A stretch of 64,000 bases of DNA from NCBI GenBank assembly GCA_902500055.1, contig GCA_902500055.1_4131.1. One strand, given 5' to 3'. Positions 1 through 63,920 of this stretch are shown here, piece after piece (positions within the stretch are counted from its first letter, which is position 1; every line of letters begins with the position of its first letter). The stretch is from Escherichia coli. Its GTDB lineage: Bacteria; Pseudomonadota; Gammaproteobacteria; Enterobacterales; Enterobacteriaceae. A model generated the notes under the pieces. The model worked only from the letters and a program-made list of their open reading frames with translations, searched no databases and was not told where the DNA came from. A program made the position numbers and the translations under genes.

Positions 1-266
1 GTACCTTTTTTAACATCACAGACTTCTTCCATCCAATGTGGATTTTCGTTTTTATCAGTGAAGATTTGTTCTGCTTCTTCTTTTGTTTCAGCTAGGACAA
101 TACGATCCCCTTCATCCAAATCACGGATACGATACACTTTCAGTTCTTGTTTCTTCTCAAGAATATTACACAGTTCACGTGCTTTTTCTTCATCGCACTT
201 CCCTTCATTAGCATAAAACCAAATTGCTTTTTTAATAAGGTCACGTTCTTCTTTAGAAAAAGACAT
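1..266 (-). CDS. hypothetical protein (partial, C-terminus outside window)
   Basis: Minus-strand ORF starting MSFSKEERDLIKK at 266 and running off the window start; consensus promoter immediately upstream. Confidence 0.5.
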   Translation of the reverse strand, partial: MSFSKEERDLIKKAIWFYANEGKCDEEKARELCNILEKKQELKVYRIRDLDEGDRIVLAETKEEAEQIFTDKNENPHWMEEVCDVKKG

Positions 267-311
267 AATATTTCCTATCATTTGTTAAAGTGGATTTCGT
301 TTGATATAAAC

Positions 312-339
312 ATTATACAGTACTGATATCTTATGTCAA
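312..339 (-). promoter_or_regulatory. sigma-70-type promoter (TTGACA-N16-TATAAT)
   Basis: Minus strand reads TTGACAtaagatatcagtactgTATAAT; perfect -35 and -10 hexamers. Confidence 0.6.
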
Positions 340-435
340 GTATTAATCACCAAAAATCATCAGATACCCAAACCAACCCACACAGACGACTAAGCTAACA
401 ATACCAAAGACAATCTCTAAAGTCATGTTACATCC

Positions 436-636
436 TTAATCAATGATTTTATATTCACGATGACCATAGAAGCCAGCTTCAAGGATGCGATTACCATCAG
501 CATCTTCCAAGTCCCAGCCACGGGATGTTTCGGCAATAATAGTCATGATGTGACCTCTTGGGAAAATCCCACTCAGAGTGGATACATCCTCAAGTAATTG
601 AACTTTCTTACCAACATTGGAATTCGGTTTAAACAT
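436..636 (-). CDS. hypothetical protein
   Basis: 66 aa ORF, no recognisable motif. Confidence 0.4.
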   Translation of the reverse strand: MFKPNSNVGKKVQLLEDVSTLSGIFPRGHIMTIIAETSRGWDLEDADGNRILEAGFYGHREYKIID

Positions 637-646
637 TTTATTTCCC

Positions 647-829
647 TTATTCGTTGATTACATCAAGTACTTTATCCAGCTTTTTACCAATGCTTTCCTT
701 TGGTTTCTCACCATTCTGGAATACATTAGTACTGCAATACTCAGGACGCGTATTAGGAAACTTCTCGTTCATCCAGGAGTGACCGTAAACACCCAGCATG
801 ATGCCAACGATAAGAATGATAATTTGCAT
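647..829 (-). CDS. hypothetical small membrane protein
   Basis: 60 aa ORF with hydrophobic N-terminus MQIIILIVGIMLGV. Confidence 0.3.
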   Translation of the reverse strand: MQIIILIVGIMLGVYGHSWMNEKFPNTRPEYCSTNVFQNGEKPKESIGKKLDKVLDVINE

Positions 830-844
830 GATAATTTCCTCTGA

Positions 845-1633
845 TTAAATGTTAGTAGTATAGTACTTGATTTCGTTTTGAATTGCAAGTTCTATTTGTT
901 TATTGAAAAGAATTCCAAACTCTTTGATTGATTCACAATCGAATTCAATAGAAAAAGTATACTCTGGTACACGTACATTGTCAATACCCAAATACTCTTT
1001 TATGTAAATTTTAATGAGTTCACATAGTGCAGTACTAAGACATTGAATTTCAAAATGTTTTGCACCTTTGTCAAAATACTTGAATGCATCAATATCACCT
1101 ACAATAAAACTATTCTTTAATGTAGTGAATAGGTTCTCAGGAAACACGGTAATAGGTGACATTGATTTAAGAATGTATGTATCTTTGGCATTCTTAATGT
1201 ACTCAATGAAGCAGTAGTTAACGTCAGGCTCGATTGAACGATCCGCGTTATGATACCAGTGTTTAAACTCACTGTATTCAGCAAACTTATGCTGGCGTAA
1301 TGCGTTACAATCTTCACACAGTGCAGTCATGTTCTCTTTATCATTACCGCCCTGAAGACAGTCCAGTACATTATGGTCTAACGTCATGCGTACAAGGCGT
1401 TTCCCTTTAAGTACATAAGGTCTGAATTTATAACGATCTTTAGTACTGTGCTTGTGTAAAGTGAATACTACATTTGATTCACCGCAACAATCACATTTAA
1501 AGCCATCACGTGACATTACATGAATGAGTTTTCGAGTATTTGGACCAAACTCTGATTTGGTAATGTTACCTACAATTTCTGATGGTTGGTAATATTTTGA
1601 ATTCCGTCGAATCAGTTCATCTATAGTGCTCAT
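845..1633 (-). CDS. HNH endonuclease
   Basis: Cys/His pattern CDCCGES...DHNVLDCLQGGNDKENMTALCEDCN typical of HNH nucleases. Confidence 0.7.
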   Translation of the reverse strand: MSTIDELIRRNSKYYQPSEIVGNITKSEFGPNTRKLIHVMSRDGFKCDCCGESNVVFTLHKHSTKDRYKFRPYVLKGKRLVRMTLDHNVLDCLQGGNDKENMTALCEDCNALRQHKFAEYSEFKHWYHNADRSIEPDVNYCFIEYIKNAKDTYILKSMSPITVFPENLFTTLKNSFIVGDIDAFKYFDKGAKHFEIQCLSTALCELIKIYIKEYLGIDNVRVPEYTFSIEFDCESIKEFGILFNKQIELAIQNEIKYYTTNI

Positions 1634-1634
1634 T

Positions 1635-1865
1635 TTACATTAATCCTTCTATGCTACAACCAATAAGTACTTTTTTAACTTCAACAACTCGTACCAAATA
1701 GAATCCATTTGAAAAGTTAAAACTATACATTTGTACTAAGGCATCTGCTTCAGATTTCGCACGGATACATGATAGATAAATTTCACGTATATCACCATCT
1801 AACGATACTTGTTTCTCTGCATCGATGACAATAGAACGAATCTCAAAACGAACACCATAACTCAT
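1635..1865 (-). CDS. hypothetical protein
   Basis: 76 aa ORF abutting neighbours on the same strand. Confidence 0.4.
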   Translation of the reverse strand: MSYGVRFEIRSIVIDAEKQVSLDGDIREIYLSCIRAKSEADALVQMYSFNFSNGFYLVRVVEVKKVLIGCSIEGLM

Positions 1866-2071
1866 TGAGTTTGTCCTACAATAAGCTTTGTGTTAGTATT
1901 ACTATTGTAACACCACATTTGTTCTTTATTAACTGTAATCCAAATATCTTTGTTTACTTGTTCGTATGTACTATCACGTACTGCTATGCATTGATTCATG
2001 GAATTCATTGGGGTTATTTGTATACCGGAATTAACAGAGAAAGCGACTACTAAAAAGATTACTGAATTCAT
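1862..2071 (-). CDS. hypothetical protein
   Basis: 69 aa ORF with hydrophobic N-terminus. Confidence 0.4.
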   Translation of the reverse strand: MNSVIFLVVAFSVNSGIQITPMNSMNQCIAVRDSTYEQVNKDIWITVNKEQMWCYNSNTNTKLIVGQTQ

Positions 2072-2658
2072 TGGATATTCCTTAATGGTTAATCATCCAT
2101 CTCTTCGAGATGTCTGTTCGCTTCTAATACTACGTATTCTACGCGAATGATTAATAACTGTCAAGGACTTTTAATATTGACGGGATTTGAGGAAGGGATT
2201 TTTCTTCCCCCCCCAAGGAGGGAAATTTGACGCTGATGGTATCAGAGCTATTGCATTGAAGATTACTCATAACGAGTGCGAAAGCGGGTCATCCTGTTTC
2301 TCTCTACTTCAGTTTCATATGACGGTCTACACTTTTAAACATAGTGTATCTTCATTAAGTATCTATGCAATCAAATACTTAATGTGAGTACTCAAATTTT
2401 GGACGCAACTTTCCTGTACAAAATTCGATAACTCTCCCTTAGATAATTCGTAAGGTGTTATCCTTATATGTCTATCAAGGAACCACCAGCTATCCTAACG
2501 TGGTTCTTTATACAGCCGCATTGCCGTGAGGGGTTCAAACTATGCCCACATCTAACGGGTTTCTTTTGCTGTTCGCACTGTCGGACTGCTCAACTGCCCT
2601 CTACGTTTTCGAGTGGATCAGGTACATGAATATCATGCCAACAGAATTGTACAAGATA

Positions 2659-2687
2659 ATTATATCACAAACTTTTACTTCATCCCA
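2659..2687 (-). promoter_or_regulatory. extended -10 promoter candidate
   Basis: Minus strand TGTGATATAAT with poor -35; points into the ORF-free island 2072..2650. Confidence 0.35.
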
Positions 2688-2688
2688 T

Positions 2689-2720
2689 AAAAAAAGGTTG
2701 GCATAAGCCAACCTTTTTTC
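2689..2720 (-). terminator. rho-independent terminator (bidirectional hairpin)
   Basis: ggttggc-ataa-gccaacc stem-loop flanked by A-run and T-run, directly after the sigma gene stop. Confidence 0.7.
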
Positions 2721-2721
2721 T

Positions 2722-3687
2722 TTAGAAATCTTCGTATTCGTACCCTTTTGCAAGTACTAACTTCTTAAGCTTTTGCATAGCTTCACTGTACTTTCGGTGT
2801 ATTGATGAACGGGATTTAACATATTTTCCATTATCATCAACAAAACCATTATCAGCAATCTCACGAAGCGTTTCAGGTTCATATTCACCTAGACCATGAA
2901 CACGCTGGATAATCTCACGTTCTTTAGTACTCAATTCGTTAGTCAGTTCATTGATAGCATAACGTAAAGGTGCACGGATACTATCAACATTGAGGTTAAA
3001 ATCAGAAGCAGGTGAATGAATAATGTCACCTAATGTACCATCTGTAACACCGTCTAATGGTGCATCCAGCGAAGTGTATTCGCTTTGAAATAACAAACAA
3101 TTATTAACATGCTGAATCTCAATCCCAGTACCCTCTGAGATTATTTCAGGAGTTGGGCGAACACCATGTTTACGCATATATTCCTGACAGAATCTTTTTA
3201 CTTTGATCTTATGAACACTCATATAACGTGGGAAGTGTACCATATAGTTAGCGTCAGAACTTTCGTTATAGACTGTCATGTAAATACTAGAAGAAGCATA
3301 GGTAATGAACTTAACATTCTTATTAAGATCAAAGGTTTTTAGTGCTCTCATGAACCCCTCAACACCATATGAAATCTTATCTTCAAATGGGATATAACAA
3401 GTACATTTACTTGCTACATCAATAATCAGTCCATAATTGTAACGAACTAACAGTTCAGTGTTTTTCTTTACATTGATACCAGCTTGAATATCACGAATTA
3501 GATCTTCATTGGAAACATTTGGTGGTCGCTTAAGTGTAATATTATATTTGAAACTGCTTTGTACTTTACCTTCATTTTCATCTTTATCTTCAACGAAATC
3601 TAAGGCTTCTAGTGTGTTGACTTCTTCATTAGCAAAACATTCATCCAGAACTTCTTCGGCAATTGTATTTAAATCAAGCTTTTTCAC
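2722..3687 (-). CDS. RNA polymerase sigma factor, sigma-70 family
   Basis: Region 2-like YGLIIDVASKCTCYIPFEDKISYGVEGFMRALKTFD and region 4-like EREIIQRVHGLGEYEPETLREIADNGFVDDNGKYVKSRSSIHRKYSEAMQKL. Confidence 0.8.
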   Translation of the reverse strand: MKKLDLNTIAEEVLDECFANEEVNTLEALDFVEDKDENEGKVQSSFKYNITLKRPPNVSNEDLIRDIQAGINVKKNTELLVRYNYGLIIDVASKCTCYIPFEDKISYGVEGFMRALKTFDLNKNVKFITYASSSIYMTVYNESSDANYMVHFPRYMSVHKIKVKRFCQEYMRKHGVRPTPEIISEGTGIEIQHVNNCLLFQSEYTSLDAPLDGVTDGTLGDIIHSPASDFNLNVDSIRAPLRYAINELTNELSTKEREIIQRVHGLGEYEPETLREIADNGFVDDNGKYVKSRSSIHRKYSEAMQKLKKLVLAKGYEYEDF

Positions 3688-3708
3688 TTACATCTCCTAA
3701 TGACGAAA

Positions 3709-4206
3709 TCAAAATCGATATACATTAATATTATCATCTGTGAAGCAATCATGGTTATGCACATCCATGAAAGTACTAAACACTTTATCATATAAAGTTG
3801 TATGTTCTTCATGAATAGCAGCATCTACCATGTATTCTCCACCACTTCCCATAAAGAAAGTGTAGTCTTCATGTAGATATTCAAGTTTTTTAATAAACTT
3901 TCCTTTAGTTAAAATCATATGAATAACATAATCTTTAGAAAGAAGCACACAATGGCAACTTAACTTTCTGTCAGGTATAACTGGTACTTTATTAATTAAC
4001 CAATCCAGTACTTTATCAATTTCACTTACTGCCCCACTAGCACTGAATAAACGGTCATGTACATATAAAGTTTTTTGATTAACAACTCCATATTGATATT
4101 TTGGTCTTAGTGGAAAAAAACCAAATAAGTTTCGTGGTATAGTTGACGTAACTCTAGAATCGGTAATCAATAAATTTAATCGTTTATCAATATAAACAGT
4201 TGTCAT
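3709..4206 (-). CDS. hslV: HslV-like Ntn-hydrolase peptidase (proteasome beta-type)
   Basis: N-terminal MTTVYID and motifs LFSASGAVSE and FMGSGGEYMVDAA align with HslV MTTIVSV, AGFAGGTADAF and IGSGGPYAQAAA. Confidence 0.55.
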   Translation of the reverse strand: MTTVYIDKRLNLLITDSRVTSTIPRNLFGFFPLRPKYQYGVVNQKTLYVHDRLFSASGAVSEIDKVLDWLINKVPVIPDRKLSCHCVLLSKDYVIHMILTKGKFIKKLEYLHEDYTFFMGSGGEYMVDAAIHEEHTTLYDKVFSTFMDVHNHDCFTDDNINVYRF

Positions 4207-4207
4207 A

Positions 4208-4627
4208 TTAAACCTTATCTAAGAATTTATCGTATATATAAAATTCTTTATCGGTGAATACATTAATTCTAGTATCGAATCTTTGCATCGTGTTCATATA
4301 CAATGAACTTTTTAAATAAAAATACAAAGCAACAAATTCTGATATATGCATATTCTTTTTATTGTTACATAAATTCTTTAGCATTTTGATGCTATCAAAT
4401 TCTTCTTTATCAAATCTGTACTGGTAAAAATTATATCTATTGAACTGGCACTCATAGATACGAAGTGCCATTATATCAATACATGCTTGCGATTTACAGT
4501 ACTTATTCAATACGTCATAATCACCCGTACATAATGCTACAAAGATTTTATGTGCAAGTGTAGCTTTTCCTTCAATCGTATGATAACCAAAGAACTTAAT
4601 GATTAAGTACTGAAGAAATCTAAACAT
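4208..4627 (-). CDS. hypothetical protein
   Basis: 139 aa ORF in tight minus-strand array. Confidence 0.5.
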   Translation of the reverse strand: MFRFLQYLIIKFFGYHTIEGKATLAHKIFVALCTGDYDVLNKYCKSQACIDIMALRIYECQFNRYNFYQYRFDKEEFDSIKMLKNLCNNKKNMHISEFVALYFYLKSSLYMNTMQRFDTRINVFTDKEFYIYDKFLDKV

Positions 4628-4632
4628 TTTAT

Positions 4633-4893
4633 TTAGAATTTCTCCGAAATTACAAGTGTATCATCATAATCATCAGCAATATCATGAAGAACTTTTAAGT
4701 TACTTTCACCAGAAACGCTTTTTACTTCGTTCAAAAGATAGTTTAGATCAACTTTAGTTACTTTTTCTGAATCAAACACACAGAAAGTTAATTCAGCGTT
4801 TGGACAGATCTTCTTCAGATTATCAGCAACCACTTGTTTGAAGTTGAAAGATGGGGAAGCAACTAGGTTAACTGCAACGAGAATAGATTTCAT
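4633..4893 (-). CDS. hypothetical protein
   Basis: 86 aa ORF. Confidence 0.5.
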   Translation of the reverse strand: MKSILVAVNLVASPSFNFKQVVADNLKKICPNAELTFCVFDSEKVTKVDLNYLLNEVKSVSGESNLKVLHDIADDYDDTLVISEKF

Positions 4894-4967
4894 AATGTTT
4901 TCCTTTCTAGCTGATAATTAAATTAGGAGCACATTGTACTCCATATTATTTGTTATGTCAAATACTT

Positions 4968-5219
4968 TTAGATACCAAGTGCAGTAGATAACTCTTTACG
5001 TTTGTTATATGAATCAGATTCAATCTTACTTTTCTTGTTGAAAAGGGATTCGATATCCTTATAGATTGCTTCGATAGATTTAGTTACTACCCATTCTGAT
5101 TCTTGAAGCATACCTTGGAGTCGTGCGTACTCAACTTTGATAGTACTGCGAAGTTCTTCACAAACTTCTTCATTCTTAATTAGTGCAGCACTAAGTTCTT
5201 TGACCTTATCGATGTTCAT
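4968..5219 (-). CDS. hypothetical protein
   Basis: 83 aa ORF, helical/charged composition. Confidence 0.45.
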   Translation of the reverse strand: MNIDKVKELSAALIKNEEVCEELRSTIKVEYARLQGMLQESEWVVTKSIEAIYKDIESLFNKKSKIESDSYNKRKELSTALGI

Positions 5220-5278
5220 AAGTTCCTTACTCTAATTTGTTTTTAACAAAATAATTATATATAACATACTAAATTATG

Positions 5279-5704
5279 TCAAGTATTTTTAGTACCTTCT
5301 TCTGCCATTTTTGTGATATACCAATTAAGTACTGATTTGTGTACCATAAAAAATGTGAATGCAAATATAGCAATAGCTGCTGATGTAACACTATTAGATA
5401 ATGACCCAAGTTGGATGTTAGTACCTAAAATAACAATAAATGGATACAACACAATCAATCTACTGTAAGGTTCGTCTCCAGTATCACGGAGAAATCCAAG
5501 CCTTTCATGATCAGTATCCATAGTGACAATTGGACAGAACATAAGTGCAGACATAAGAGCAATACCAATTTGTGCTACATTGGAAATTGTAAACCACAAA
5601 GGATTTAAACCATATGAAATATTATTTTCTGTACAGTAGTAACCAAACGAATTGAATGCACAAACTAAAAATACAAAAATACAAATCTTATTATAACCTC
5701 TCAT
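5279..5704 (-). CDS. hypothetical membrane protein
   Basis: Several hydrophobic segments. Confidence 0.5.
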   Translation of the reverse strand: MRGYNKICIFVFLVCAFNSFGYYCTENNISYGLNPLWFTISNVAQIGIALMSALMFCPIVTMDTDHERLGFLRDTGDEPYSRLIVLYPFIVILGTNIQLGSLSNSVTSAAIAIFAFTFFMVHKSVLNWYITKMAEEGTKNT

Positions 5705-6123
5705 TTGTTTAGCTCCGTTAATTTTCGTTTAACTTCTAGATCATGAAATTCATCGGCATATGAGTTTTGAACAGTTCTGATGTATTCCAACATAACAAAC
5801 ATAGTTCCACATACCCATAGATATGTATAGTAATCAAATACAAATGCATATAACATACACGGTACTAAAATGAAAGTGTAAACAAAACTATATCGGGTAG
5901 TTCCAAATACTTTCAGATATAACAAACGTCGATAATCACGGGCAAATGTATTGATGCACACTGAAAATGTAATTAATGTATACCATGAAATACCCTGAAT
6001 TAAACCTGAAACATTTAAAAGTTTATGTTCATCGGAAAACCCCAGTGCATTTAGCACTGGAGCCATAACCCAACCAATAATACTAATAAGAAAAAGATAT
6101 TTTGCATTACTTAGTGTGAACAT
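5701..6123 (-). CDS. hypothetical membrane protein
   Basis: Several hydrophobic segments; 4-nt overlap with downstream gene. Confidence 0.5.
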   Translation of the reverse strand: MFTLSNAKYLFLISIIGWVMAPVLNALGFSDEHKLLNVSGLIQGISWYTLITFSVCINTFARDYRRLLYLKVFGTTRYSFVYTFILVPCMLYAFVFDYYTYLWVCGTMFVMLEYIRTVQNSYADEFHDLEVKRKLTELNK

Positions 6124-6124
6124 A

Positions 6125-6583
6125 TTACTTTAGTCCCCATGCTTTTTTGATTGCATCAACAGAGTTTTGGTCCACTACTTCCTTTTTTTCTGATGTAGTT
6201 TGAAGTTTATTAATTACATATTCCTTTGCATCTTTTTCTATCATAAATTTACCATCAACCAACACACCAAAAACTTTAGAATTTCGGGCTGGATATGGAT
6301 TAATTTCATCAAGAGTACGGACTTTCTTATCAACTATAATGGCTTTGATGTAACCAGTTTCAAGTACTGTTGTAATCACAGTCATTTCAATTGCAACTGG
6401 TGAATCTTCCCAATACGCAATCCATTTAGTAAAGCTACGATCAGGTGAATCTTTTGTGCATTTTAATTTAATTGCACTATTAAAAATGTATTGTTTAAAA
6501 TTGTCATCGACAACTTCACTAATACTCAAATAACCTTCACGCTCTTCTGTGTTACGTTTGAAATTTGTAGCTAATACATCCAT
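6125..6583 (-). CDS. hypothetical protein
   Basis: 152 aa ORF. Confidence 0.5.
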   Translation of the reverse strand: MDVLATNFKRNTEEREGYLSISEVVDDNFKQYIFNSAIKLKCTKDSPDRSFTKWIAYWEDSPVAIEMTVITTVLETGYIKAIIVDKKVRTLDEINPYPARNSKVFGVLVDGKFMIEKDAKEYVINKLQTTSEKKEVVDQNSVDAIKKAWGLK

Positions 6584-6625
6584 TTTCCATCCCCCCTTGG
6601 GTTACTTGGTGTGTTAATTATAATA

Positions 6626-7102
6626 CTAAGAATCTTTGTTGTCAAACTTTTCCCTCAAGTATTTTTCTATTAATCTAATTTGTGTTGGTGGTAAGATAAA
6701 GTAATCGTACATAGATTTACTACCATGTATCGAACAACCTACACTAATACTATAATCATATGGATATAAGTATATTGGGTCTTGTATATCAGGTATGAAA
6801 ACTATTCTTGGTATATTACCATTTCCTATTCTTACTTGGACGTTATCATTATTATTAAGATAATTTCTTATACAGTACTCAATTATACCATTTACTTTAG
6901 AATCATAACCATAATTTTTATATTCAGGAAAAATGAAATAGCGTTCATGGTATAGATATGAGCATAGTAATGCTGGGAAAAAATTCCAAAAACCTTCATG
7001 CTTTGCAATTGTTTGTGCATATTTAAAATGATTAGCATTACTAAAAATATTATACAGCACAAAATACACAAATGGACTAACCAACAACACTATTGTTAAC
7101 AT
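6626..7102 (-). CDS. hypothetical membrane protein
   Basis: Hydrophobic N-terminus MLTIVLLVSPFVYFVLYNIF. Confidence 0.45.
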   Translation of the reverse strand: MLTIVLLVSPFVYFVLYNIFSNANHFKYAQTIAKHEGFWNFFPALLCSYLYHERYFIFPEYKNYGYDSKVNGIIEYCIRNYLNNNDNVQVRIGNGNIPRIVFIPDIQDPIYLYPYDYSISVGCSIHGSKSMYDYFILPPTQIRLIEKYLREKFDNKDS

Positions 7103-7563
7103 CAGAAGCCTCTGTATTTTTCATACACTTCAACGCATTCCATGATTTTGTCATCGTCCATCATATCATAGCCTTGTAGAAATTCTTCTTTATCAACCTT
7201 CCCTGCCATCATATCTGTGTCAGAAATTCTGGAGTCATAGAAGTAATACATATCTTTATAGTACTGGTTTTTGTGCTGCTCAATCTTTACTTTAGCATAT
7301 CCAGCACAAAATGAAGGAGATTTAACAACTTCCCATTTATGCTTCTTGATGGGTTTATCATTAGCATGTTTTTCCCTGTATGTCTGACGATAACGTTCAC
7401 GCATTTCAGGCATGTATTCTTCAGCAGTACGTTTAGGGGGAGTTTTACCAGTCCCAATAGTTTTAATAGTTTGACGTTGTTCTTCTGCGTGTACTGGGGA
7501 AATGAAACATGATGTACCAAACAGTACTGCTACGATAACCATAAAATTCTTAAACATAATCAA
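7102..7563 (-). CDS. hypothetical secreted protein
   Basis: Signal-peptide-like N-terminus MIMFKNFMVIVAVLFGTSCFISPVHA. Confidence 0.55.
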   Translation of the reverse strand: MIMFKNFMVIVAVLFGTSCFISPVHAEEQRQTIKTIGTGKTPPKRTAEEYMPEMRERYRQTYREKHANDKPIKKHKWEVVKSPSFCAGYAKVKIEQHKNQYYKDMYYFYDSRISDTDMMAGKVDKEEFLQGYDMMDDDKIMECVEVYEKYRGF

Positions 7564-7787
7564 ACCTCTTTTACAATAATATCGATTGATACTGGAATTG
7601 CAATTTCACTATTACATGAATATACATCAGCACAGTACTCAATATCTAGCACTTTATAATATTTCTCAAAACCACAAATGGTAAGATTCAACGTTGACCC
7701 AACTGCTGGGAGTACAGGAAATGATAAGAACGCAATTTTAGAATGAAATTCTTCATTGATATCTTGATATACAGTTGCAGTAATCAC
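7560..7787 (-). CDS. hypothetical protein
   Basis: 75 aa ORF, 4-nt overlaps with both neighbours. Confidence 0.4.
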   Translation of the reverse strand: MITATVYQDINEEFHSKIAFLSFPVLPAVGSTLNLTICGFEKYYKVLDIEYCADVYSCNSEIAIPVSIDIIVKEV

Positions 7788-8368
7788 AATGGTAACTCCT
7801 GTAGTGGTTTCATAATACCGAGTACTGGGTGATTTTCAATCATTGGTCGCCCTGGTACACCAGTGAGGATAACTGGGATAGAACTAATATCTTTTACATA
7901 GTTGAATCCCTCAAACGTGAACTCTTGTTTTTTCTCATTATACAATACCCATAGTATTACGTCAGCTTTTTTCTGGATATTTTTTAACTGTCGAGTACTA
8001 ACACATGGTCCAAAGTCAGTCCATGATTTATACTTGATACCTTTTACTTCAATACGAAGGTTGTTTACCTTAATATCACATTCACCGTCACGTGCTTCAT
8101 TTTGGAATGCTGGATCGATATTAAGTTTAATACCAGTATTGTTTTCAATTTCATTAAAAAGTACTAAAGATGCGTGCTCACACACCATACCAACAAAATG
8201 ACTATGTGCATGATTAAAACCATATGGCGATTTACTTGCTGGAGCCAAAAGTTTATATCTTTCTGATTTTTCAATCGCTTTTGCCATAAAGGAATCAGCT
8301 TCATCTTTATATAACTTAACAGTCATTTTTCCATTTTTCAGTACTAATCTATTATCAATAACATTCAT
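7784..8368 (-). CDS. hypothetical protein, possible PD-(D/E)xK nuclease
   Basis: Segment GECDIKVNNLRIEVKG resembles the D...E-x-K catalytic motif; weak. Confidence 0.45.
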   Translation of the reverse strand: MNVIDNRLVLKNGKMTVKLYKDEADSFMAKAIEKSERYKLLAPASKSPYGFNHAHSHFVGMVCEHASLVLFNEIENNTGIKLNIDPAFQNEARDGECDIKVNNLRIEVKGIKYKSWTDFGPCVSTRQLKNIQKKADVILWVLYNEKKQEFTFEGFNYVKDISSIPVILTGVPGRPMIENHPVLGIMKPLQELPL

Positions 8369-14954: not shown

Positions 14955-14970
14955 TGTGTACCTTAAAAAT

Positions 14971-15672
14971 TTATTTACGATTCCTTGCGGAGTTTTTATT
15001 TCTTGCTCTAAATGTCGGTGTCATTGAATGACAATTCGGACAAAGAATTTTTAAATTCGATAGGTCATTATTTGTTGCATCACCATCAATATGTTCAACT
15101 TCGGTAAGGACTGCACCATCAACTGGATGACGTTCATCCCATCCACAATCTTCACATGCAGTTCCACGTGTTTCATGTAGGTATCTTCTCACATAATTAC
15201 TAATTTTGCAAGTCTTACCAGTACAACCCAGTTTATCACCAGCAAGCCAAGACTTAACATAAGTGTCATATTGGTGCTGTTTATGGCATTTCGAATCACA
15301 ATATTTCTTATCTGTTTTTCCTTTAGGTATAAATGTATTACATGATAAACAGTACTGATCCTTCACCATCTCACCTGTATGTCGGTTATAACCTTTATTA
15401 TTATAACTAGCAGCACAAGATTGATTGCAAAATTTCTTTACTTCAACCCCTTTACAAAAAGGTATTGAGTTATGACACATCAAACACAACGTTGGATTTT
15501 CATTATAATATCTTTCACGAAATTCTTTATTAAGATTCGACAATGTAAATCCATACTTTAATAGTATTGTATTATAAGAAGGTAGTTCTTTACATTCATT
15601 GATATCTTTTTTGGTTATATTTGATTTTTTATTTTTGTATAGATTGTACATAATCTCTTTCATAACATCCAT
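14971..15672 (-). CDS. HNH endonuclease with Cys-rich zinc-finger region
   Basis: CEDCGW...EVEHIDGDATNNDLSNLKILCPNCH HNH motif plus several CxxC pairs. Confidence 0.75.
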   Translation of the reverse strand: MDVMKEIMYNLYKNKKSNITKKDINECKELPSYNTILLKYGFTLSNLNKEFRERYYNENPTLCLMCHNSIPFCKGVEVKKFCNQSCAASYNNKGYNRHTGEMVKDQYCLSCNTFIPKGKTDKKYCDSKCHKQHQYDTYVKSWLAGDKLGCTGKTCKISNYVRRYLHETRGTACEDCGWDERHPVDGAVLTEVEHIDGDATNNDLSNLKILCPNCHSMTPTFRARNKNSARNRK

Positions 15673-15729
15673 ATCCTATATAAGTAATATATAGTATTTA
15701 GTGCTATGAAATAGATTCGAACTTATTTG

Positions 15730-15803
15730 TGCCCCAATTCCGACTCGAACGGAAAAATCTCACGATTACAAATCGTGTGCATTACCAATTTTGCTATTGA
15801 GGC
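15730..15803 (-). tRNA. tRNA-Thr (anticodon TGT)
   Basis: Hand-folded cloverleaf: acceptor GCCTCAA/TTGGGGC, anticodon stem CACGA/TCGTG with loop TTTGTAA, T-arm TTCCG-TTCGAGT-CGGAA. Confidence 0.65.
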
Positions 15804-15977
15804 TAATTTAGGAAGTAAGATAACCAACAAGTCTCCATACTCTTTCGCATTGAGGGGAGGTCATCTTACTGTATTATTTATCATTTTTATTTTTGCTTAT
15901 TTCGACGCATTAACTTGATTAAAGCAAGTGTAGGCATAGGTTGTGCTGAACAAAGTACTTCAAGCTGTTTGGCAGTC

Positions 15978-16064
<87 letters not shown>

Positions 16065-16066
16065 TA

Positions 16067-16192
<126 letters not shown>

Positions 16193-16211
16193 GCATACTC
16201 GAAGTACCTCT

Positions 16212-16317
<106 letters not shown>

Positions 16318-16361
16318 AATTGCTTTATAAGCTACTGAATCGGGAATCACAACCTCCCCAT

Positions 16362-16616
<255 letters not shown>

Positions 16617-16625
16617 TAATACCCG

Positions 16626-17027
16626 CTAGTAGTTTAAGTCTGCGGCGTTGAATACACCAAGTGAAGTCTTACCACGTAGTTTAGGTGAAAGGACATACTT
16701 TGTCAATTTCTTTTTACCGTACCAGTGATTGAATTCGTCTTCAGTAACATGTGGGTTCTGGAAATCGTATTCACGTTTCTTATGAAGTTTTTTAGCTTGT
16801 TCTGCAATCTTAGTTCGTTGATCTTCTGGAATGTCGAATGTATTGTTACGTTTGCACCATTCGTGCACTAATGCTTCCAGAAGGAACTGTTCAGTTTCTT
16901 TGACTAGAGTGATTTTAGTCAAGCCTTTTTCGATGTTCATATAATCATCGACATATCCATTCCAAATAACAATCTCTGGATTGCCGTCAATCTCTTGAAG
17001 CATTTTGATCAAGTCATTCTTTTTCAT
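16626..17027 (-). CDS. hypothetical protein
   Basis: 133 aa; N-terminus MKKNDLIKMLQ paralogous to 16398..16613. Confidence 0.5.
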   Translation of the reverse strand: MKKNDLIKMLQEIDGNPEIVIWNGYVDDYMNIEKGLTKITLVKETEQFLLEALVHEWCKRNNTFDIPEDQRTKIAEQAKKLHKKREYDFQNPHVTEDEFNHWYGKKKLTKYVLSPKLRGKTSLGVFNAADLNY

Positions 17028-17035
17028 TTAAATTC

Positions 17036-17347
<312 letters not shown>

Positions 17348-17397
17348 TTAATTAACAGTTAATCGCACCACCTATTGTGCTACAGAGTCATAATTAT

Positions 17398-18102
17398 TTA
17401 TAAGCCATGTCTTTTCAAAAATCTAGCAAACACATTTTTGGAAGCACCATAACTTTCATATATACTAACTTTTTTCTCACCATTATTCAAACGTTGTTTG
17501 ATATCTTCTATGTTATCTTCTAAACGTTTTACGTTTGCAAATTTCTTAGATGGTATATTATTTTTGGTTCTATAATTCAGTACTGAACCTGAACTAATAT
17601 TCATTATTTTAGCAATTTCAGTATCTAATAAACCTTGGTTAATATATTCTTTTACCTTTTCATAATCAACAGATGTTTCACCACCCTTTGTATTAGAAGG
17701 AGGCTTGACCATTTTTTGTGAACACTCAACACTACAATATTTTGTATATGATTTCACTTTAGTATGCCTACGGGTAAATTCCATATTACAACAAGCACAT
17801 ACAAATGAATCATATCGTGCTTGCACACCATTCTTATGTGTTTTATAACGATGTTCATCAACATGAAGTATTTGCAAATTTGACAAATCATCATTTGTGA
17901 AATCATTATCAATGTGGTCTGCTTCTTCAGACTCAGTTAAATATCTACCTTCTTGTACTGCTAATAGATATCTGGCATATTGAGTACTGCTTCTATCAGT
18001 TGGAGAATTATAAAGTATTACAGTTCTTCTACCTTCAGGGTTTATCTGTATATACCCATTCTCCCAATCATTACTGTATGGATATTCTAATTTTATTTTC
18101 AT
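17398..18102 (-). CDS. HNH homing endonuclease
   Basis: EEADHIDNDFTNDDLSNLQILHVDEH HNH core with basic HTH-like C-terminus. Confidence 0.7.
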   Translation of the reverse strand: MKIKLEYPYSNDWENGYIQINPEGRRTVILYNSPTDRSSTQYARYLLAVQEGRYLTESEEADHIDNDFTNDDLSNLQILHVDEHRYKTHKNGVQARYDSFVCACCNMEFTRRHTKVKSYTKYCSVECSQKMVKPPSNTKGGETSVDYEKVKEYINQGLLDTEIAKIMNISSGSVLNYRTKNNIPSKKFANVKRLEDNIEDIKQRLNNGEKKVSIYESYGASKNVFARFLKRHGL

Positions 18103-18433
18103 TATTTTATTTCAAAGTTTGTGAGCCATCTGTGAGTCGAACACAGTACCTAACGATTCGTATAATCTATAGTTTTCACTATAGTACGGACTATATCATC
18201 ATCCCATAGGGATGCCGGACGCTAATGATGTATTACACAGTAAGATCGTACTGTACCATCTAGTCTCTGCACCTTCCCAATACGCTTATTGGGCTTGGCT
18301 CAGGATTGTCATCACCATTACGTGTTAAGATTTCCCTGAATTCATCCAGTTTTTCAATCACCATTACTGATGAAAGTCACCATTGTCGATGAGTCGTTTG
18401 CTCTAACCACCGTGAGCTAATGGCCCGATTTAG

Positions 18434-18686
<253 letters not shown>

Positions 18687-18695
18687 TACTGAAAA

Positions 18696-19085
<390 letters not shown>

Positions 19086-19163
19086 ATCACCAACTTTAAT
19101 TAAAAAAAATGGATGGTGACGCTTTTAAACGTCGCTGTCAATTCAGCTTTATAACCACCCGTT

Positions 19164-19373
19164 TTAACTTACCTTTCGGCTACCTTGACGTGGGGCGTAC
19201 AGGCTACTAAAAGCAACTTCTGTAAACATATTTCCACGCCTTACCCTTTTAAATAAAAGTCCATCCGGTTTTCCAGTTTGATGAAGGACTGTCACCTCTA
19301 GTTTAAACCTGCTAGTCAAGTAATAATTGCCTATCGTCCAATTATCAAACCCGTCTAGGTTAACATTCACCAC
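19164..19373 (-). CDS. hypothetical protein
   Basis: 69 aa ORF in a GC-richer, possibly non-coding stretch. Confidence 0.3.
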   Translation of the reverse strand: MVNVNLDGFDNWTIGNYYLTSRFKLEVTVLHQTGKPDGLLFKRVRRGNMFTEVAFSSLYAPRQGSRKVS

Positions 19374-19455
19374 TTCCTAGAGTACCAGAGATCTTGTTCT
19401 GGATTGCATCGACGTAACTTACACCATATACGTCTGATTGTGGAATTCATTTTAT

Positions 19456-19486
<31 letters not shown>

Positions 19487-19525
19487 ACAAATCTGGACGT
19501 TCATCTTTAAACATATTAATATCCT

Positions 19526-19543
19526 CAGTACTGAATTATTTAG

Positions 19544-19548
<5 letters not shown>
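19526..19548 (-). repeat. promoter-like repeat copy 2
   Basis: cagtactgaattatttagtcaag; minus strand TTGACT -35. Confidence 0.5.
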
Positions 19549-19956
<408 letters not shown>

Positions 19957-19968
19957 GCTTTTTTTTAA

Positions 19969-20129
<161 letters not shown>

Positions 20130-20133
<4 letters not shown>

Positions 20134-20294
20134 ATTCGTACCATTAGTTCAATTAAGTACTTTTTATATTCTGGGTCGTTGATAAGTTTATCATACAGAT
20201 GCAACTTTGAAATGAATTCCCAATGATACTTTAGCCATTTACCAATACCTGCATATCTAAAATTAATATCATTCATCCATTCTTCATGCGTCAT
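20130..20294 (-). CDS. MTHEEW small protein, subfamily A
   Basis: 54 aa MTHEEWMNDINFRYAGIGKWLKYHWEF...MVRI; stop overlaps next start in ATGA. Confidence 0.5.
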
Positions 20295-20455
20295 ATTCGT
20301 ACCATTATTTCAATAAAGAACCACGGATACACTTCATGATTTATAAGTTTATCGTATTCTGCTGGGTCTGATATAATCTCCCAATGATATTTTCGCCAAT
20401 TACCTATGCCGGAGTATCTGAACTTTAGTTCACTTAACCATTCTTCATGGGTCAT
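20291..20455 (-). CDS. MTHEEW small protein, subfamily A
   Basis: 54 aa MTHEEWLSELKFRYSGIGNWRKYHWEI...MVRI; ATGA overlap with next gene. Confidence 0.5.
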   Translation of the reverse strand: MTHEEWLSELKFRYSGIGNWRKYHWEIISDPAEYDKLINHEVYPWFFIEIMVRI

Positions 20456-20489
20456 GGTTTTCCCTTTTAATTAATGGAATATAATTGTA

Positions 20490-21032
<543 letters not shown>

Positions 21033-21046
21033 AATATTATATTTTA

Positions 21047-21118
21047 TAAAGGGCCGGAGAATCGAACTCCGATTGGATTCTTAGAAGGAATCTGTTTTAT
21101 CCGTTAAACTAGCCCCTC
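21047..21118 (-). tRNA. tRNA-Arg (anticodon TCT)
   Basis: Hand-folded: D-stem GTTT/AAAC, anticodon stem GATTC/GAATC with loop CTTCTAA, T-arm CGGAG-TTCGATT-CTCCG; acceptor needs two G-U pairs. Confidence 0.55.
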
Positions 21119-21128
21119 AGTACTAATA

Positions 21129-21157
21129 ATTATATCACATCTTTTTGTGCTGTCCCA
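21129..21157 (-). promoter_or_regulatory. extended -10 promoter candidate upstream of tRNA-Arg
   Basis: Minus strand TGTGATATAAT about 10 nt upstream of the tRNA 5' end. Confidence 0.35.
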
Positions 21158-21161
21158 TTAT

Positions 21162-21458
21162 TTATGATTCGGTTTGGGGATTAAATTTGATAAATTCATC
21201 TTTATGTTCATCTTCGATTGCAATATCTTCTACATCTTCAGGCCAGATTGTGGTGTCATCTTGGAAGAAGCGATAATTATCGAATTCTGCACTACGTGTT
21301 CTTCCCTGTTTCCAACCAATAGTGCAGTCATGATATACATCACCACTACGTGTACGAATACTAATTGAGTCTTGTGTTTCATAAAGAACATCAATGCGTG
21401 TGTCACGACTTGTGTTGAATTTTTCAAAATGCATAATATTATCCTCATTTAGAACCAA
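21162..21458 (-). CDS. hypothetical protein
   Basis: 98 aa ORF. Confidence 0.5.
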   Translation of the reverse strand: MVLNEDNIMHFEKFNTSRDTRIDVLYETQDSISIRTRSGDVYHDCTIGWKQGRTRSAEFDNYRFFQDDTTIWPEDVEDIAIEDEHKDEFIKFNPQTES

Positions 21459-21528
21459 TGATAATCATTATATAATGAATTAATCATTTATGCAAGTGCT
21501 TTAGATACACTAACGCAATTTTCTATAT

Positions 21529-21708
21529 TCATTGTTTGATTGTTTTTCTAAATGCCAGTTCGCATATAAACCAGGGTTTTCTGGTATCCAAAACATATGA
21601 CCTGAAAAGATTTTCATCTCTTAAGATGTCATAGTGTACCTGACGAATACCATTCCCAAAGAAATCATGTTCTTTATGTTGTTTGGACATCCATTCTTTG
21701 TGTGTCAT
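21529..21708 (-). CDS. MTHEEW small protein, subfamily B
   Basis: 59 aa MTHKEWMSKQHKEHDFFGNGIRQVHYDILRDENLFRSYVLDTRKPWFICELAFRKTIKQ; below ORF-track cut-off. Confidence 0.5.
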   Translation of the reverse strand: MTHKEWMSKQHKEHDFFGNGIRQVHYDILRDENLFRSYVLDTRKPWFICELAFRKTIKQ

Positions 21709-25588: not shown

Positions 25589-25617
25589 ATTATATCACAA
25601 TATCTGTTCTTGTCCAA
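25589..25617 (-). promoter_or_regulatory. sigma-70-type promoter with extended -10
   Basis: Minus strand TTGGAC-N17-TGTGATATAAT. Confidence 0.5.
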
Positions 25618-52702: not shown

Positions 52703-52710
52703 TATTTATA
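52703..52710 (-). promoter_or_regulatory. T4-type late promoter candidate (TATAAATA)
   Basis: Minus-strand TATAAATA close to the annotated ATG; true start may be the internal Met. Confidence 0.3.
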
Positions 52711-56213: not shown

Positions 56214-56241
56214 ATTGTATCACCAATGTTTTGTTTGTCTC
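56214..56241 (-). promoter_or_regulatory. promoter candidate (GAGACA-N16-TACAAT)
   Basis: Minus-strand hexamers upstream of the topoisomerase large-subunit gene. Confidence 0.4.

Positions 56242-62617: not shown

Positions 62618-63920
<1,303 letters not shown>

Follow-up and report, generated by a model that had tools for sequence, protein, structure and literature searches.

A sigma-70-family factor of Rak2-like jumbo phages, a candidate middle sigma, and the -35 box it may read

Within a stretch of 64,000 nucleotides (nt) from Escherichia coli assembly GCA_902500055.1 (contig GCA_902500055.1_4131.1), hereafter called the window, positions 2722–3687 of the minus strand encode a 321-amino-acid (aa) sigma factor of the sigma-70 family. 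Here we describe this protein, the promoter classes that surround its gene and a -35 box that varies in step with its recognition helix, and we propose that it may act as the middle factor in a phage sigma cascade. The first 8 kb of the window are 98–99% identical to the E. coli jumbo phages SHEFM2K, 121Q, PBECO4, Sharanji, phAPEC6 and G17, and the rest is colinear with SHEFM2K at ~98%, apart from a swapped tRNA cassette. Over the part that matches the window (~98–99% identical), SHEFM2K is annotated with a clamp loader, topoisomerase II, a Dda-like helicase and RNase H, and its next ~40 kb carry gp43, gp32, UvsX and gp41- and gp61-like genes. An earlier reading of the letters alone (the original prediction) had placed the sigma gene in a phage with T4-like replication genes, and this annotation bears that out over the matching part.

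Neither the existence nor the annotation of the gene is new. GenBank records for 121Q, PBECO4, SHEFM2K and others already label the open reading frame (ORF) an RNA polymerase sigma factor, and the published Rak2-like orthologues (121Q gp167, PBECO4, Sharanji WNN14470.1, RaK2 ORF244, CBB_513 and GAP32) are the same gene. The sigma gene of Rak2-like phages has been discussed in several papers (PMC5259590, PMC7824862, PMC11895373). the CBB paper assigns regions 2, 3 and 4 to CBB_513 and places it in an early region that has many RpoD-like promoters (PMC5259590); group 2 jumbo phages were stated to encode a minimal sigma, a fuller RpoD-like one, or both (Iyer et al., 2021); and the Sharanji paper named the sigma gene a hallmark of this group. 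These papers neither assign the sigma to a promoter class nor describe the lost tryptophan dyad or the region 4.2 insertion reported below.

The gene spans the ~350-kb Rak2-like clade. The protein is 99.4–99.7% identical to its full-length orthologues in 121Q, PBECO4 and Sharanji, and 31–46% identical to those of RaK2, 7t3, CBB and XbC2, which share the early-region position, the region 4.2 insertion and the loss of the tryptophan dyad. By tblastn, identity was 43% in RaK2/K64-1, 37% in 7t3, 35% in GAP32, CBB and Serratia BF, and 31% in Xanthomonas XbC2.

The sigma gene closes a four-gene operon

The locus contains the following features, identified from the ORF list, a promoter scan (4933–4961) or direct reading of the sequence (the Shine-Dalgarno and terminator):

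2722–3687, minus strand: sigma-70-family sigma factor gene, 321 aa, GTG start, TAA stop at 2724–2722
3694–3698, minus strand: Shine-Dalgarno sequence AGGAG, 6 nt 5' of the sigma GTG
2689–2715, minus strand: intrinsic terminator, AAGGTTGGC-ttat-GCCAACCTT followed by a T-run, directly 3' of the sigma stop codon
3709–4206, minus strand: co-operonic small gene, 165 aa, PHROG 24804, immediately 5' of the sigma gene
4208–4627, minus strand: co-operonic small gene, 139 aa
4633–4893, minus strand: co-operonic small gene, 86 aa
4933–4961, minus strand: class 1 host-type promoter of the sigma operon, TTGACA-N17-TACAAT

The site at 4961–4933 is the closest promoter-like site 5' of the sigma gene, and the genes between are tightly packed; the sigma gene closes a tight operon of four genes behind this promoter. 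The N-terminus that follows the GTG, MKKLDLN, is kept in all homologues aligned. The terminator at 2689–2715 was missing from the output of the automated terminator and promoter scan.

The 165-aa gene directly 5' of the sigma gene occupies that position in RaK2 and 7t3 as well. Its product weakly matches an HslV-family peptidase PHROG (E 1.7e-5), and its N-terminal MTT... resembles that of Ntn-hydrolases; this protein and the sigma may be functional partners. For the three co-operonic proteins, nothing scored above threshold in Pfam or PDB searches, and the PHROGs gave the weak HslV-family match only.

The protein has sigma2, sigma3 and sigma4 domains

We aligned the protein with 11 close family members and with E. 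coli RpoD, RpoS and FliA, and then added RaK2, 7t3, CBB and XbC2. These alignments, the PDB alignment, Pfam and a structural model place its parts as follows (all on the minus strand):

3540–3687: N-terminal acidic region, aa 1–49 (14 D+E vs 5 K+R, from composition)
3250–3462: sigma2 domain, aa ~76–146, regions 2.1–2.4 (RpoD/RpoS/FliA and PDB alignments)
3010–3228: sigma3 domain, aa ~154–226 (Pfam; model helices 154–174, 180–187 and 191–199)
2749–2979: sigma4 domain, aa ~237–313, regions 4.1–4.2 (partial Pfam r4 match; model)

The sole PHROG match was PHROG 351, 'RNA polymerase sigma factor' (E 2.6e-60), and the NCBIfam sigma-70 family model TIGR02937 scored above its cutoff (44.7 vs 42.9). 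Pfam Sigma70_r3 was also above cutoff (37.8 vs 25.3 bits), which shows that a sigma3 domain is present. The r2 and r4 profiles fell slightly under theirs (23.0 vs 24.0 and 23.8 vs 24.1 bits), and the r4 match covers profile positions 4–28 of 50 only (aa 251–279) because a 9-aa hairpin interrupts the helix-turn-helix (HTH). Equivalog cutoffs were not reached: the best partial match was RpoD_Cterm (88 bits vs a cutoff of 354), and rpoS_proteo gave 70.5 vs 378.7. In a phmmer search of the PDB, residues 74–279 were colinear with residues 373–578 of E. coli sigma70 (E ~1e-14).

An AlphaFold model built from 27 sequences had predicted local distance difference test (pLDDT) scores of ~80–89 across residues 50–320, and its best Foldseek matches were sigmaS and SigA chains (~265 columns, E ~1e-11). 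In the sigma4 domain the modelled helices are 234–249, 254–264, 274–280 and 293–313, the last two being the helices of the HTH. The N-terminal region holds a conserved short helix, MKKLDLNxIxEEVLDECF (helix 6–18 in the model), and is otherwise predicted to be disordered (pLDDT <40). A region 1.2 helix was not found: Pfam Sigma70_r1_2 gave no match, residues 19–59 are predicted to be unstructured, and only an 'LTxEEE'-like segment aligns.

The protein is a full-length sigma-70-family factor of sigma2-sigma3-sigma4 architecture. It had been predicted to be a full sigma with regions 2 and 4; the domain, PDB and model matches agree, and add region 3. RpoS and RpoD are its closest matches in sequence and structure, regions 2.1–4.2 are colinear with theirs, and its length is like that of RpoS. 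Identity to E. coli RpoD, RpoS and FliA is 24%, 23% and 20%, respectively, and so does not suggest that the gene was captured from the host recently. The core-binding helix of region 2.2, DKISYGVEGFMRALKTF, keeps D403, G408, G411, A415 and F419 (sigma70 numbering, as below). From the conserved sigma2 and sigma4 surfaces, the phage sigma is predicted to bind host core RNA polymerase.

Specificity residues depart from those of housekeeping sigmas

The predicted DNA-recognition helices of regions 2.4 and 4.2 are both present, and it is only in specificity residues that they differ from those of sigma70. Three features on the minus strand stand out in the alignments, the second also in the model:

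3286–3294: codons for S132-S133-S134, at the position of sigma70 T432-W433-W434
2830–2856: 9-aa insertion ADNGFVDDN, aa 278–286, between the HTH helices of region 4.2
2788–2814: recognition helix SRSSIHRKY, aa 292–300, opposite sigma70 T583–E591 (TRERIRQIE)

In sigma70, N383, L386, F419, K426, F427, T429 and Y430 line the pockets for A-11 and T-7, and the phage sigma keeps them all. The tryptophan dyad W433/W434 is lost; it is replaced by S133/S134 here and by S, T or A in every member of the clade. Q437 and T440 are M137 and Y140 in the 121Q type, and E458 is V. The ADNGFVDDN insertion is found clade-wide and is modelled as a β-hairpin; all PDB alignments of the protein end at about aa 280.

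The -35 element is read in sigma70 by R584, E585, R588 and Q589, with residue-to-base assignments that come from sigma70 genetics and structures. In the phage recognition helix R584 is kept, whereas E585 and R586 are replaced by S, R588 by H and Q589 by R. Thus, unlike RpoD and RpoS, to which it is 23–24% identical, the phage sigma has no region 1.2 helix, no W433/W434, changed residues at E585, R588 and Q589, and a hairpin within its HTH.

Consensus promoters in the window are best read as host promoters

We scanned the window for TTGACA-N16-18-TATAAT with at most one mismatch, on both strands, and compared the counts with those in shuffled sequence. The minus (coding) strand holds 29 such near-consensus sites (class 1), 11 of them perfect, vs 3.9 ± 2.0 in shuffles; the plus strand holds 1 vs 2.8 expected. 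The abundance of near-consensus TTGACA/TATAAT promoters noted in the original prediction is therefore real, and confined to the coding strand. A relaxed scan of positions 1–8000 (9/12 matches) showed no excess (36 vs 41), so that only near-consensus sites are informative. Class 1 sites sit 59–97 nt 5' of start codons. Across 161 kb of SHEFM2K they are dense in the small-ORF early region, become sparser among the replication genes and do not occur in the structural module.

The sigma gene itself lies behind a class 1 site, and class 1, which must produce the phage sigma, therefore cannot depend on it. Taken together with the changed -35 residues, this position means that the TTGACA-N17-TATAAT sites are best read as ordinary early promoters of host sigma70, as in T4. 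The original prediction had coupled the sigma to these abundant sites. That coupling is unsupported, given the position of the sigma gene behind 4961–4933, the changes at E585, R588 and Q589, and the HTH hairpin. The broader idea, that the sigma serves promoters resembling those of the host housekeeping factor, probably holds for a smaller second class rather than for the abundant consensus sites.

A second promoter class precedes replication genes

This second class (class 2) emerged from reading the intergenic regions, and has the form A/T-tract, G(A/G)GACA(A), 16 bp, TGnTA(T/C)AAT. In 161 kb of SHEFM2K, the coding strand has 12 matches to the pattern NNGACA(non-TT)-N16-TAYAAT (~1.2 expected per spacer) and the other strand has 2, and 11/12 of the coding-strand sites carry the TGn of an extended -10 element. 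They precede the genes for Dda, exonuclease, primase, gp32 (two sites) and a Lon-like protease, as well as the gene ahead of DNA polymerase and the gp55-like gene. The window contains the following sites (all on the minus strand):

56214–56241: class 2 (putative middle) promoter, T-tract GAGACA-N16-tgaTACAAT, 62 nt 5' of the topoisomerase II large subunit gene
62928–62955: class 2 promoter, AGGACA-N16-tgaTATAAT, 5' of the Dda-like helicase gene and within the RNase H gene
21129–21156: class 2-type site, GGGACA-N16-tgaTATAAT, in the tRNA region
25589–25616: class 2-type site, TGGACA-N16-tgaTATAAT
2659–2686: class 2-type site, GGGATG-N16-tgaTATAAT, just 3' of the sigma terminator and directed towards an ORF-poor stretch

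The GGGATG variant recurs at orthologous promoters in 7t3. A k-mer search of the intergenic DNA of the window found no fourth promoter-like motif beyond classes 1 and 2 and the late class described below.

A related class has been described in CBB, where the authors reported 'divergent RpoD-like' promoters, TGAAACG + TATA, before DNA-synthesis genes and the gp55-like gene, and assigned no factor to them (PMC5259590). The GRGACA class is the local form of this CBB class. The CBB motif itself, TGAAACG, was tried as a -35 element for the window and rejected: it is not enriched (9 vs 4 by strand) and no copy is paired with a -10, the local equivalent being GRGACA.

The recognition helix and the -35 box vary together

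We compared orthologous promoters in five lineages, namely those of the pre-polymerase gene, RNase H, ssb, primase, exonuclease and two others. At these class 2 promoters the extended -10 hardly varies and the spacer stays at 16 bp (16–17 in RaK2), with a box that is specific to the lineage:

121Q type (E. coli): helix SRSSIHRKY, box GRGACA
7t3 (Salmonella): helix SRTSLHRCY, box GGGAC(A), GAGACA, GGGATG
RaK2 (Klebsiella): helix VRGTLHYKF, box tTGAAC(A/G)
CBB (Pectobacterium): helix SKATLSRRY, box tGAAAC(G), GGAATG
XbC2 (Xanthomonas): helix SKATLSRRY, box tGAAAC(G), GGAATG

Three helix types pair with three box types, and the same helix type goes with the same box even though the hosts differ. 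Retention of R584 parallels the GAC core that the boxes share, and the changes at E585, R588 and Q589 parallel the changed upstream positions of the box. Region 4.2 of sigma70 is essentially identical among enterobacterial hosts, and a lineage-specific box would therefore need a reader encoded by the phage.

PA5oct-type Pseudomonas phages provide a natural control for the link between sigma and box. They share the replication module (gp32 42% identical; 11 records), no such phage is among the 91 tblastn matches of the sigma at E ≤ 1e-5, and their ssb and primase promoters are plain TTGACA-N17-TATAAT.

A separate gp55-like factor and late-type promoters

SHEFM2K encodes a separate gp55-like protein, M2K_0523, which matches phrog_234, 'late sigma transcription factor' (E 8.4e-18), and whose gene adjoins SbcCD (gp46/47-like) genes, as in T4. 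T4-late-like TATAAATAAT motifs lie on the coding strand before virion genes, with many in the SHEFM2K structural module; TATAAATA, the gp55 motif, appears in the structural region, where TTGACA consensus sites are absent. The window itself contains two late-type motifs (class 3), TATAAATAAT / ATAAATAAT, at 52709–52702 and 61206–61198 on the minus strand, before the gene for a ~800-aa virion protein and before another gene. These motifs are interleaved with replication genes, and the temporal classes are therefore mixed along the genome.

T4 gp55 is likewise a specificity factor that a phage supplies for host core polymerase, although it belongs to a different family (PHROG 234 vs 351). The original prediction had set the protein apart from minimal gp55. 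It is indeed not a factor of that type, but the contrast does not extend to the lineage, which encodes a gp55-like sigma as well.

A possible three-step sigma cascade

Weighing this evidence, we see about an even chance that the present gene encodes a 'middle' sigma, in a cascade that passes from host sigma70 to the phage sigma to the gp55-like factor in Rak2-like jumbo phages. In a first step, after infection, the host sigma70 holoenzyme would fire the near-consensus TTGACA-N17-TATAAT promoters of the small-ORF early region. The site at 4961–4933 would drive the operon that ends in the sigma gene; the layout is observed and the early timing is presumed. In a second step, the 321-aa sigma would bind host core and direct the polymerase to class 2 promoters, with the altered region 4.2 (SRSSIHRKY plus the β-hairpin insertion) reading the box and the largely conserved A-11 and T-7 pockets probably reading the host-like -10. 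Its targets would comprise Dda, topoisomerase II, exonuclease, primase, gp32, the pre-polymerase gene and the gene for the gp55-like late sigma. In a third step, the gp55-like factor would drive T4-type late promoters, TATAAATAAT, before structural genes. Sigma replacement would in this way do what T4 does by MotA/AsiA appropriation of sigma70.

Somewhat more tentatively, we propose for the clade as a whole that Rak2-like phages have replaced MotA/AsiA appropriation with a true sigma, one that lacks the tryptophan dyad, carries a hairpin in region 4.2, works with an extended -10 and has a helix and box that co-evolved (GRGACA/TGAACA/GAAACG). The phages would then run a three-sigma cascade with matched sigma4/-35 pairs. 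If so, a T4-related lineage solves the early-to-middle switch by sigma replacement and not by appropriation, and the five lineages amount to matched pairs of region 4.2 helix and -35 box on a constant scaffold. Such pairs would be a compact system for work on the evolution of -35 specificity and on the construction of orthogonal E. coli promoters. A further consequence would be that a -10 of the TATAAT type can be opened by a sigma lacking the W433/W434 wedge.

Several observations weigh against the proposed middle role. The class 2 -10 is a canonical extended element, yet the clade lacks W433/W434 and E458, and Q437, T440 and H455 are lost in the 121Q type; the naive expectation from these losses is a changed -10 preference. 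Class 2 is small (~12 sites in 161 kb, 4–5 in the window). The helix/box covariation comes from few independent lineages, CBB and XbC2 belonging to one genus. A one-residue code, in which His at the R588 position specifies G at box position 3, is contradicted by RaK2 and was dropped for that reason in favour of covariation between helix type and box type. The PA5oct control reaches only as far as its E ≤ 1e-5 threshold, and our literature search found no transcriptomic or biochemical paper on the Rak2-like sigma family.

Alternative readings

The strongest competing explanation, which we nevertheless consider unlikely, is that host sigma70 uses class 2 promoters through the extended -10, helped by a phage activator of the MotA/AsiA kind on the box, and that the phage sigma reads some other class. 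Since sigma70 is able to use extended -10 promoters without a -35 element, a MotA-like phage activator could bind the box, which is a further point against a middle sigma. TGn, the hallmark of -35-independent sigma70 promoters, is present in 11/12 class 2 sites, and the residues that let sigma70 read TG and -12 are missing from the phage sigma; moreover, CBB and XbC2 have a gene for an HTH regulator two genes 5' of the sigma gene. However, the 161 kb of SHEFM2K examined carry no MotA- or AsiA-like annotation (this rests on annotation, no whole-genome homologue search having been made). Intergenic DNA of the window shows no over-represented motif beyond classes 1–3, ribosome-binding sites, terminators and an CAGTACTG palindrome. 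An activator would also leave it unexplained that the recognition helix of the sigma varies in step with the box.

It is less probable still that the phage sigma itself serves the TTGACA/TATAAT promoters and thereby duplicates or replaces host sigma70, for example after inactivation of the host sigma. The strong, strand-specific enrichment of class 1 sites, the largely kept A-11 and T-7 pocket residues of region 2, and the top sequence and structure matches to RpoD, RpoS and SigA would all fit such a role. Yet class 1 must work before the protein exists, since the sigma gene lies behind a class 1 promoter, and E585, R588 and Q589 are replaced, the HTH contains a hairpin and the tryptophan dyad is lost. 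Phage early genes typically have perfect host-type promoters, which require no factor from the phage, and a sigma with host specificity would not tell phage from host DNA.

We give little credence to the idea that the protein is a competitor for core RNA polymerase, shutting off the host by displacing sigma70 with little promoter specificity, or that it is a decaying relic. Its unusual DNA-melting and specificity residues, the missing tryptophan dyad and the Pfam r2 and r4 scores just under cutoff could be taken that way, but it is full-length across the Rak2-like clade at 31% to 100% identity, insertion and helix pattern included, and the retention of Y430, the pocket residues and the HTH scaffold indicates selection for DNA binding, not decay. 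Least credible of all is a late sigma that reads the TATAAATAAT motifs before structural genes: late-type motifs do lie on the coding strand before virion genes, but the gp55 motif is TATAAATA, a distinct gp55-like protein (phrog_234) is encoded beside gp46/47-like genes, as in T4, and the sigma gene is in the early region.

Relation to other phage sigma systems

In the SPO1 cascade (host sigmaA to gp28 to gp33/34), as in the middle-sigma scheme proposed here, a phage sigma produced from early promoters of host type redirects host core to the next temporal class. The SPO1 sigmas are small and very divergent, and SPO1 promoters share neither element with host promoters. In Rak2-like phages, by contrast, the -10 and spacing are host-like, only the -35 box changes, and the last step uses a factor of the T4 gp55 type. 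The logic of an SPO1-type sigma cascade is also stated in PMC13401047.

Phage phiEco32 gp36 and Salmonella phage 7-11 gp47 are sigma-70-family proteins that work with E. coli core in vitro; gp36 shows no homology to region 4 and recognises one element only, tAATGTAtA, and gp47 reads GTAAtg-N16-aCTA at late genes (PMC8948821). Unlike either, the present sigma has a complete region 4 with an insertion, and its candidate promoters keep TGnTATAAT. Closer in layout are the T4 middle promoters, which likewise combine a host-type -10 with a phage-specific box at -35, stand before replication genes and come ahead of the gp55 step (T4 promoter classes are summarised in PMC6024815). The difference from T4 middle mode would be replacement of the host sigma rather than its remodelling.

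Other features of the window

Directly after the sigma terminator there is an ORF-poor, relatively GC-rich stretch of ~480 nt (2170–2650, minus strand), flanked by the class 2-type promoter at 2686–2659 before it and a host-type promoter at 2164–2136 after it. Rfam gave no credible family for this stretch, and its folding z-score was -1.96. In RaK2, too, the sigma gene is followed by a gap free of ORFs. Positions 845–1633 (minus strand), ~1 kb downstream of the sigma gene in the window, encode a 262-aa protein with weak Pfam HNH matches that is labelled HNH in relatives, i.e. an HNH endonuclease gene.

The tRNA cluster is a mosaic (17300–19446 and 14964–21545) in which a cassette has been replaced relative to the otherwise ~98%-identical SHEFM2K; ~2.1 kb have no SHEFM2K counterpart, and the flanks are only 94% identical. 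ARAGORN calls tRNA-Thr, Asn, Ser(GCT), Arg(TCT) and Gly in the cluster. A group I intron (Rfam RF00028, 99 bits, E 2e-24) at 18120–18481 on the minus strand appears to split a tRNA(CAT) gene in the anticodon loop, with the 5' exon at 18426–18389, the 3' exon at 18158–18120, ~230 nt between them and acceptor arms that pair; ARAGORN does not call this split gene. The intron allele is also found in TH47, in Turkey5, where it carries the label 'HNH homing endonuclease', and in Klebsiella Muenster-type phages, where it has no annotation; in WPEC5, EJP2 and ELP-22 the corresponding place is taken by a tRNA-Met without an intron.

Finally, the palindrome CAGTACTG occurs 25 times in the window vs 0.79 ± 0.89 expected, a count reached in 0/100 shuffles. 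Sites include 318, 13649, 16247, 18684, 19456, 19526, 22705, 31279 and 47568, and they are densest at 13.6–22.8 kb. Four copies lie inside the spacers of host-type promoters, mostly as TTCAGTACTGA. A phage repressor may use the palindrome as its operator, or the site may be related to modification or restriction.

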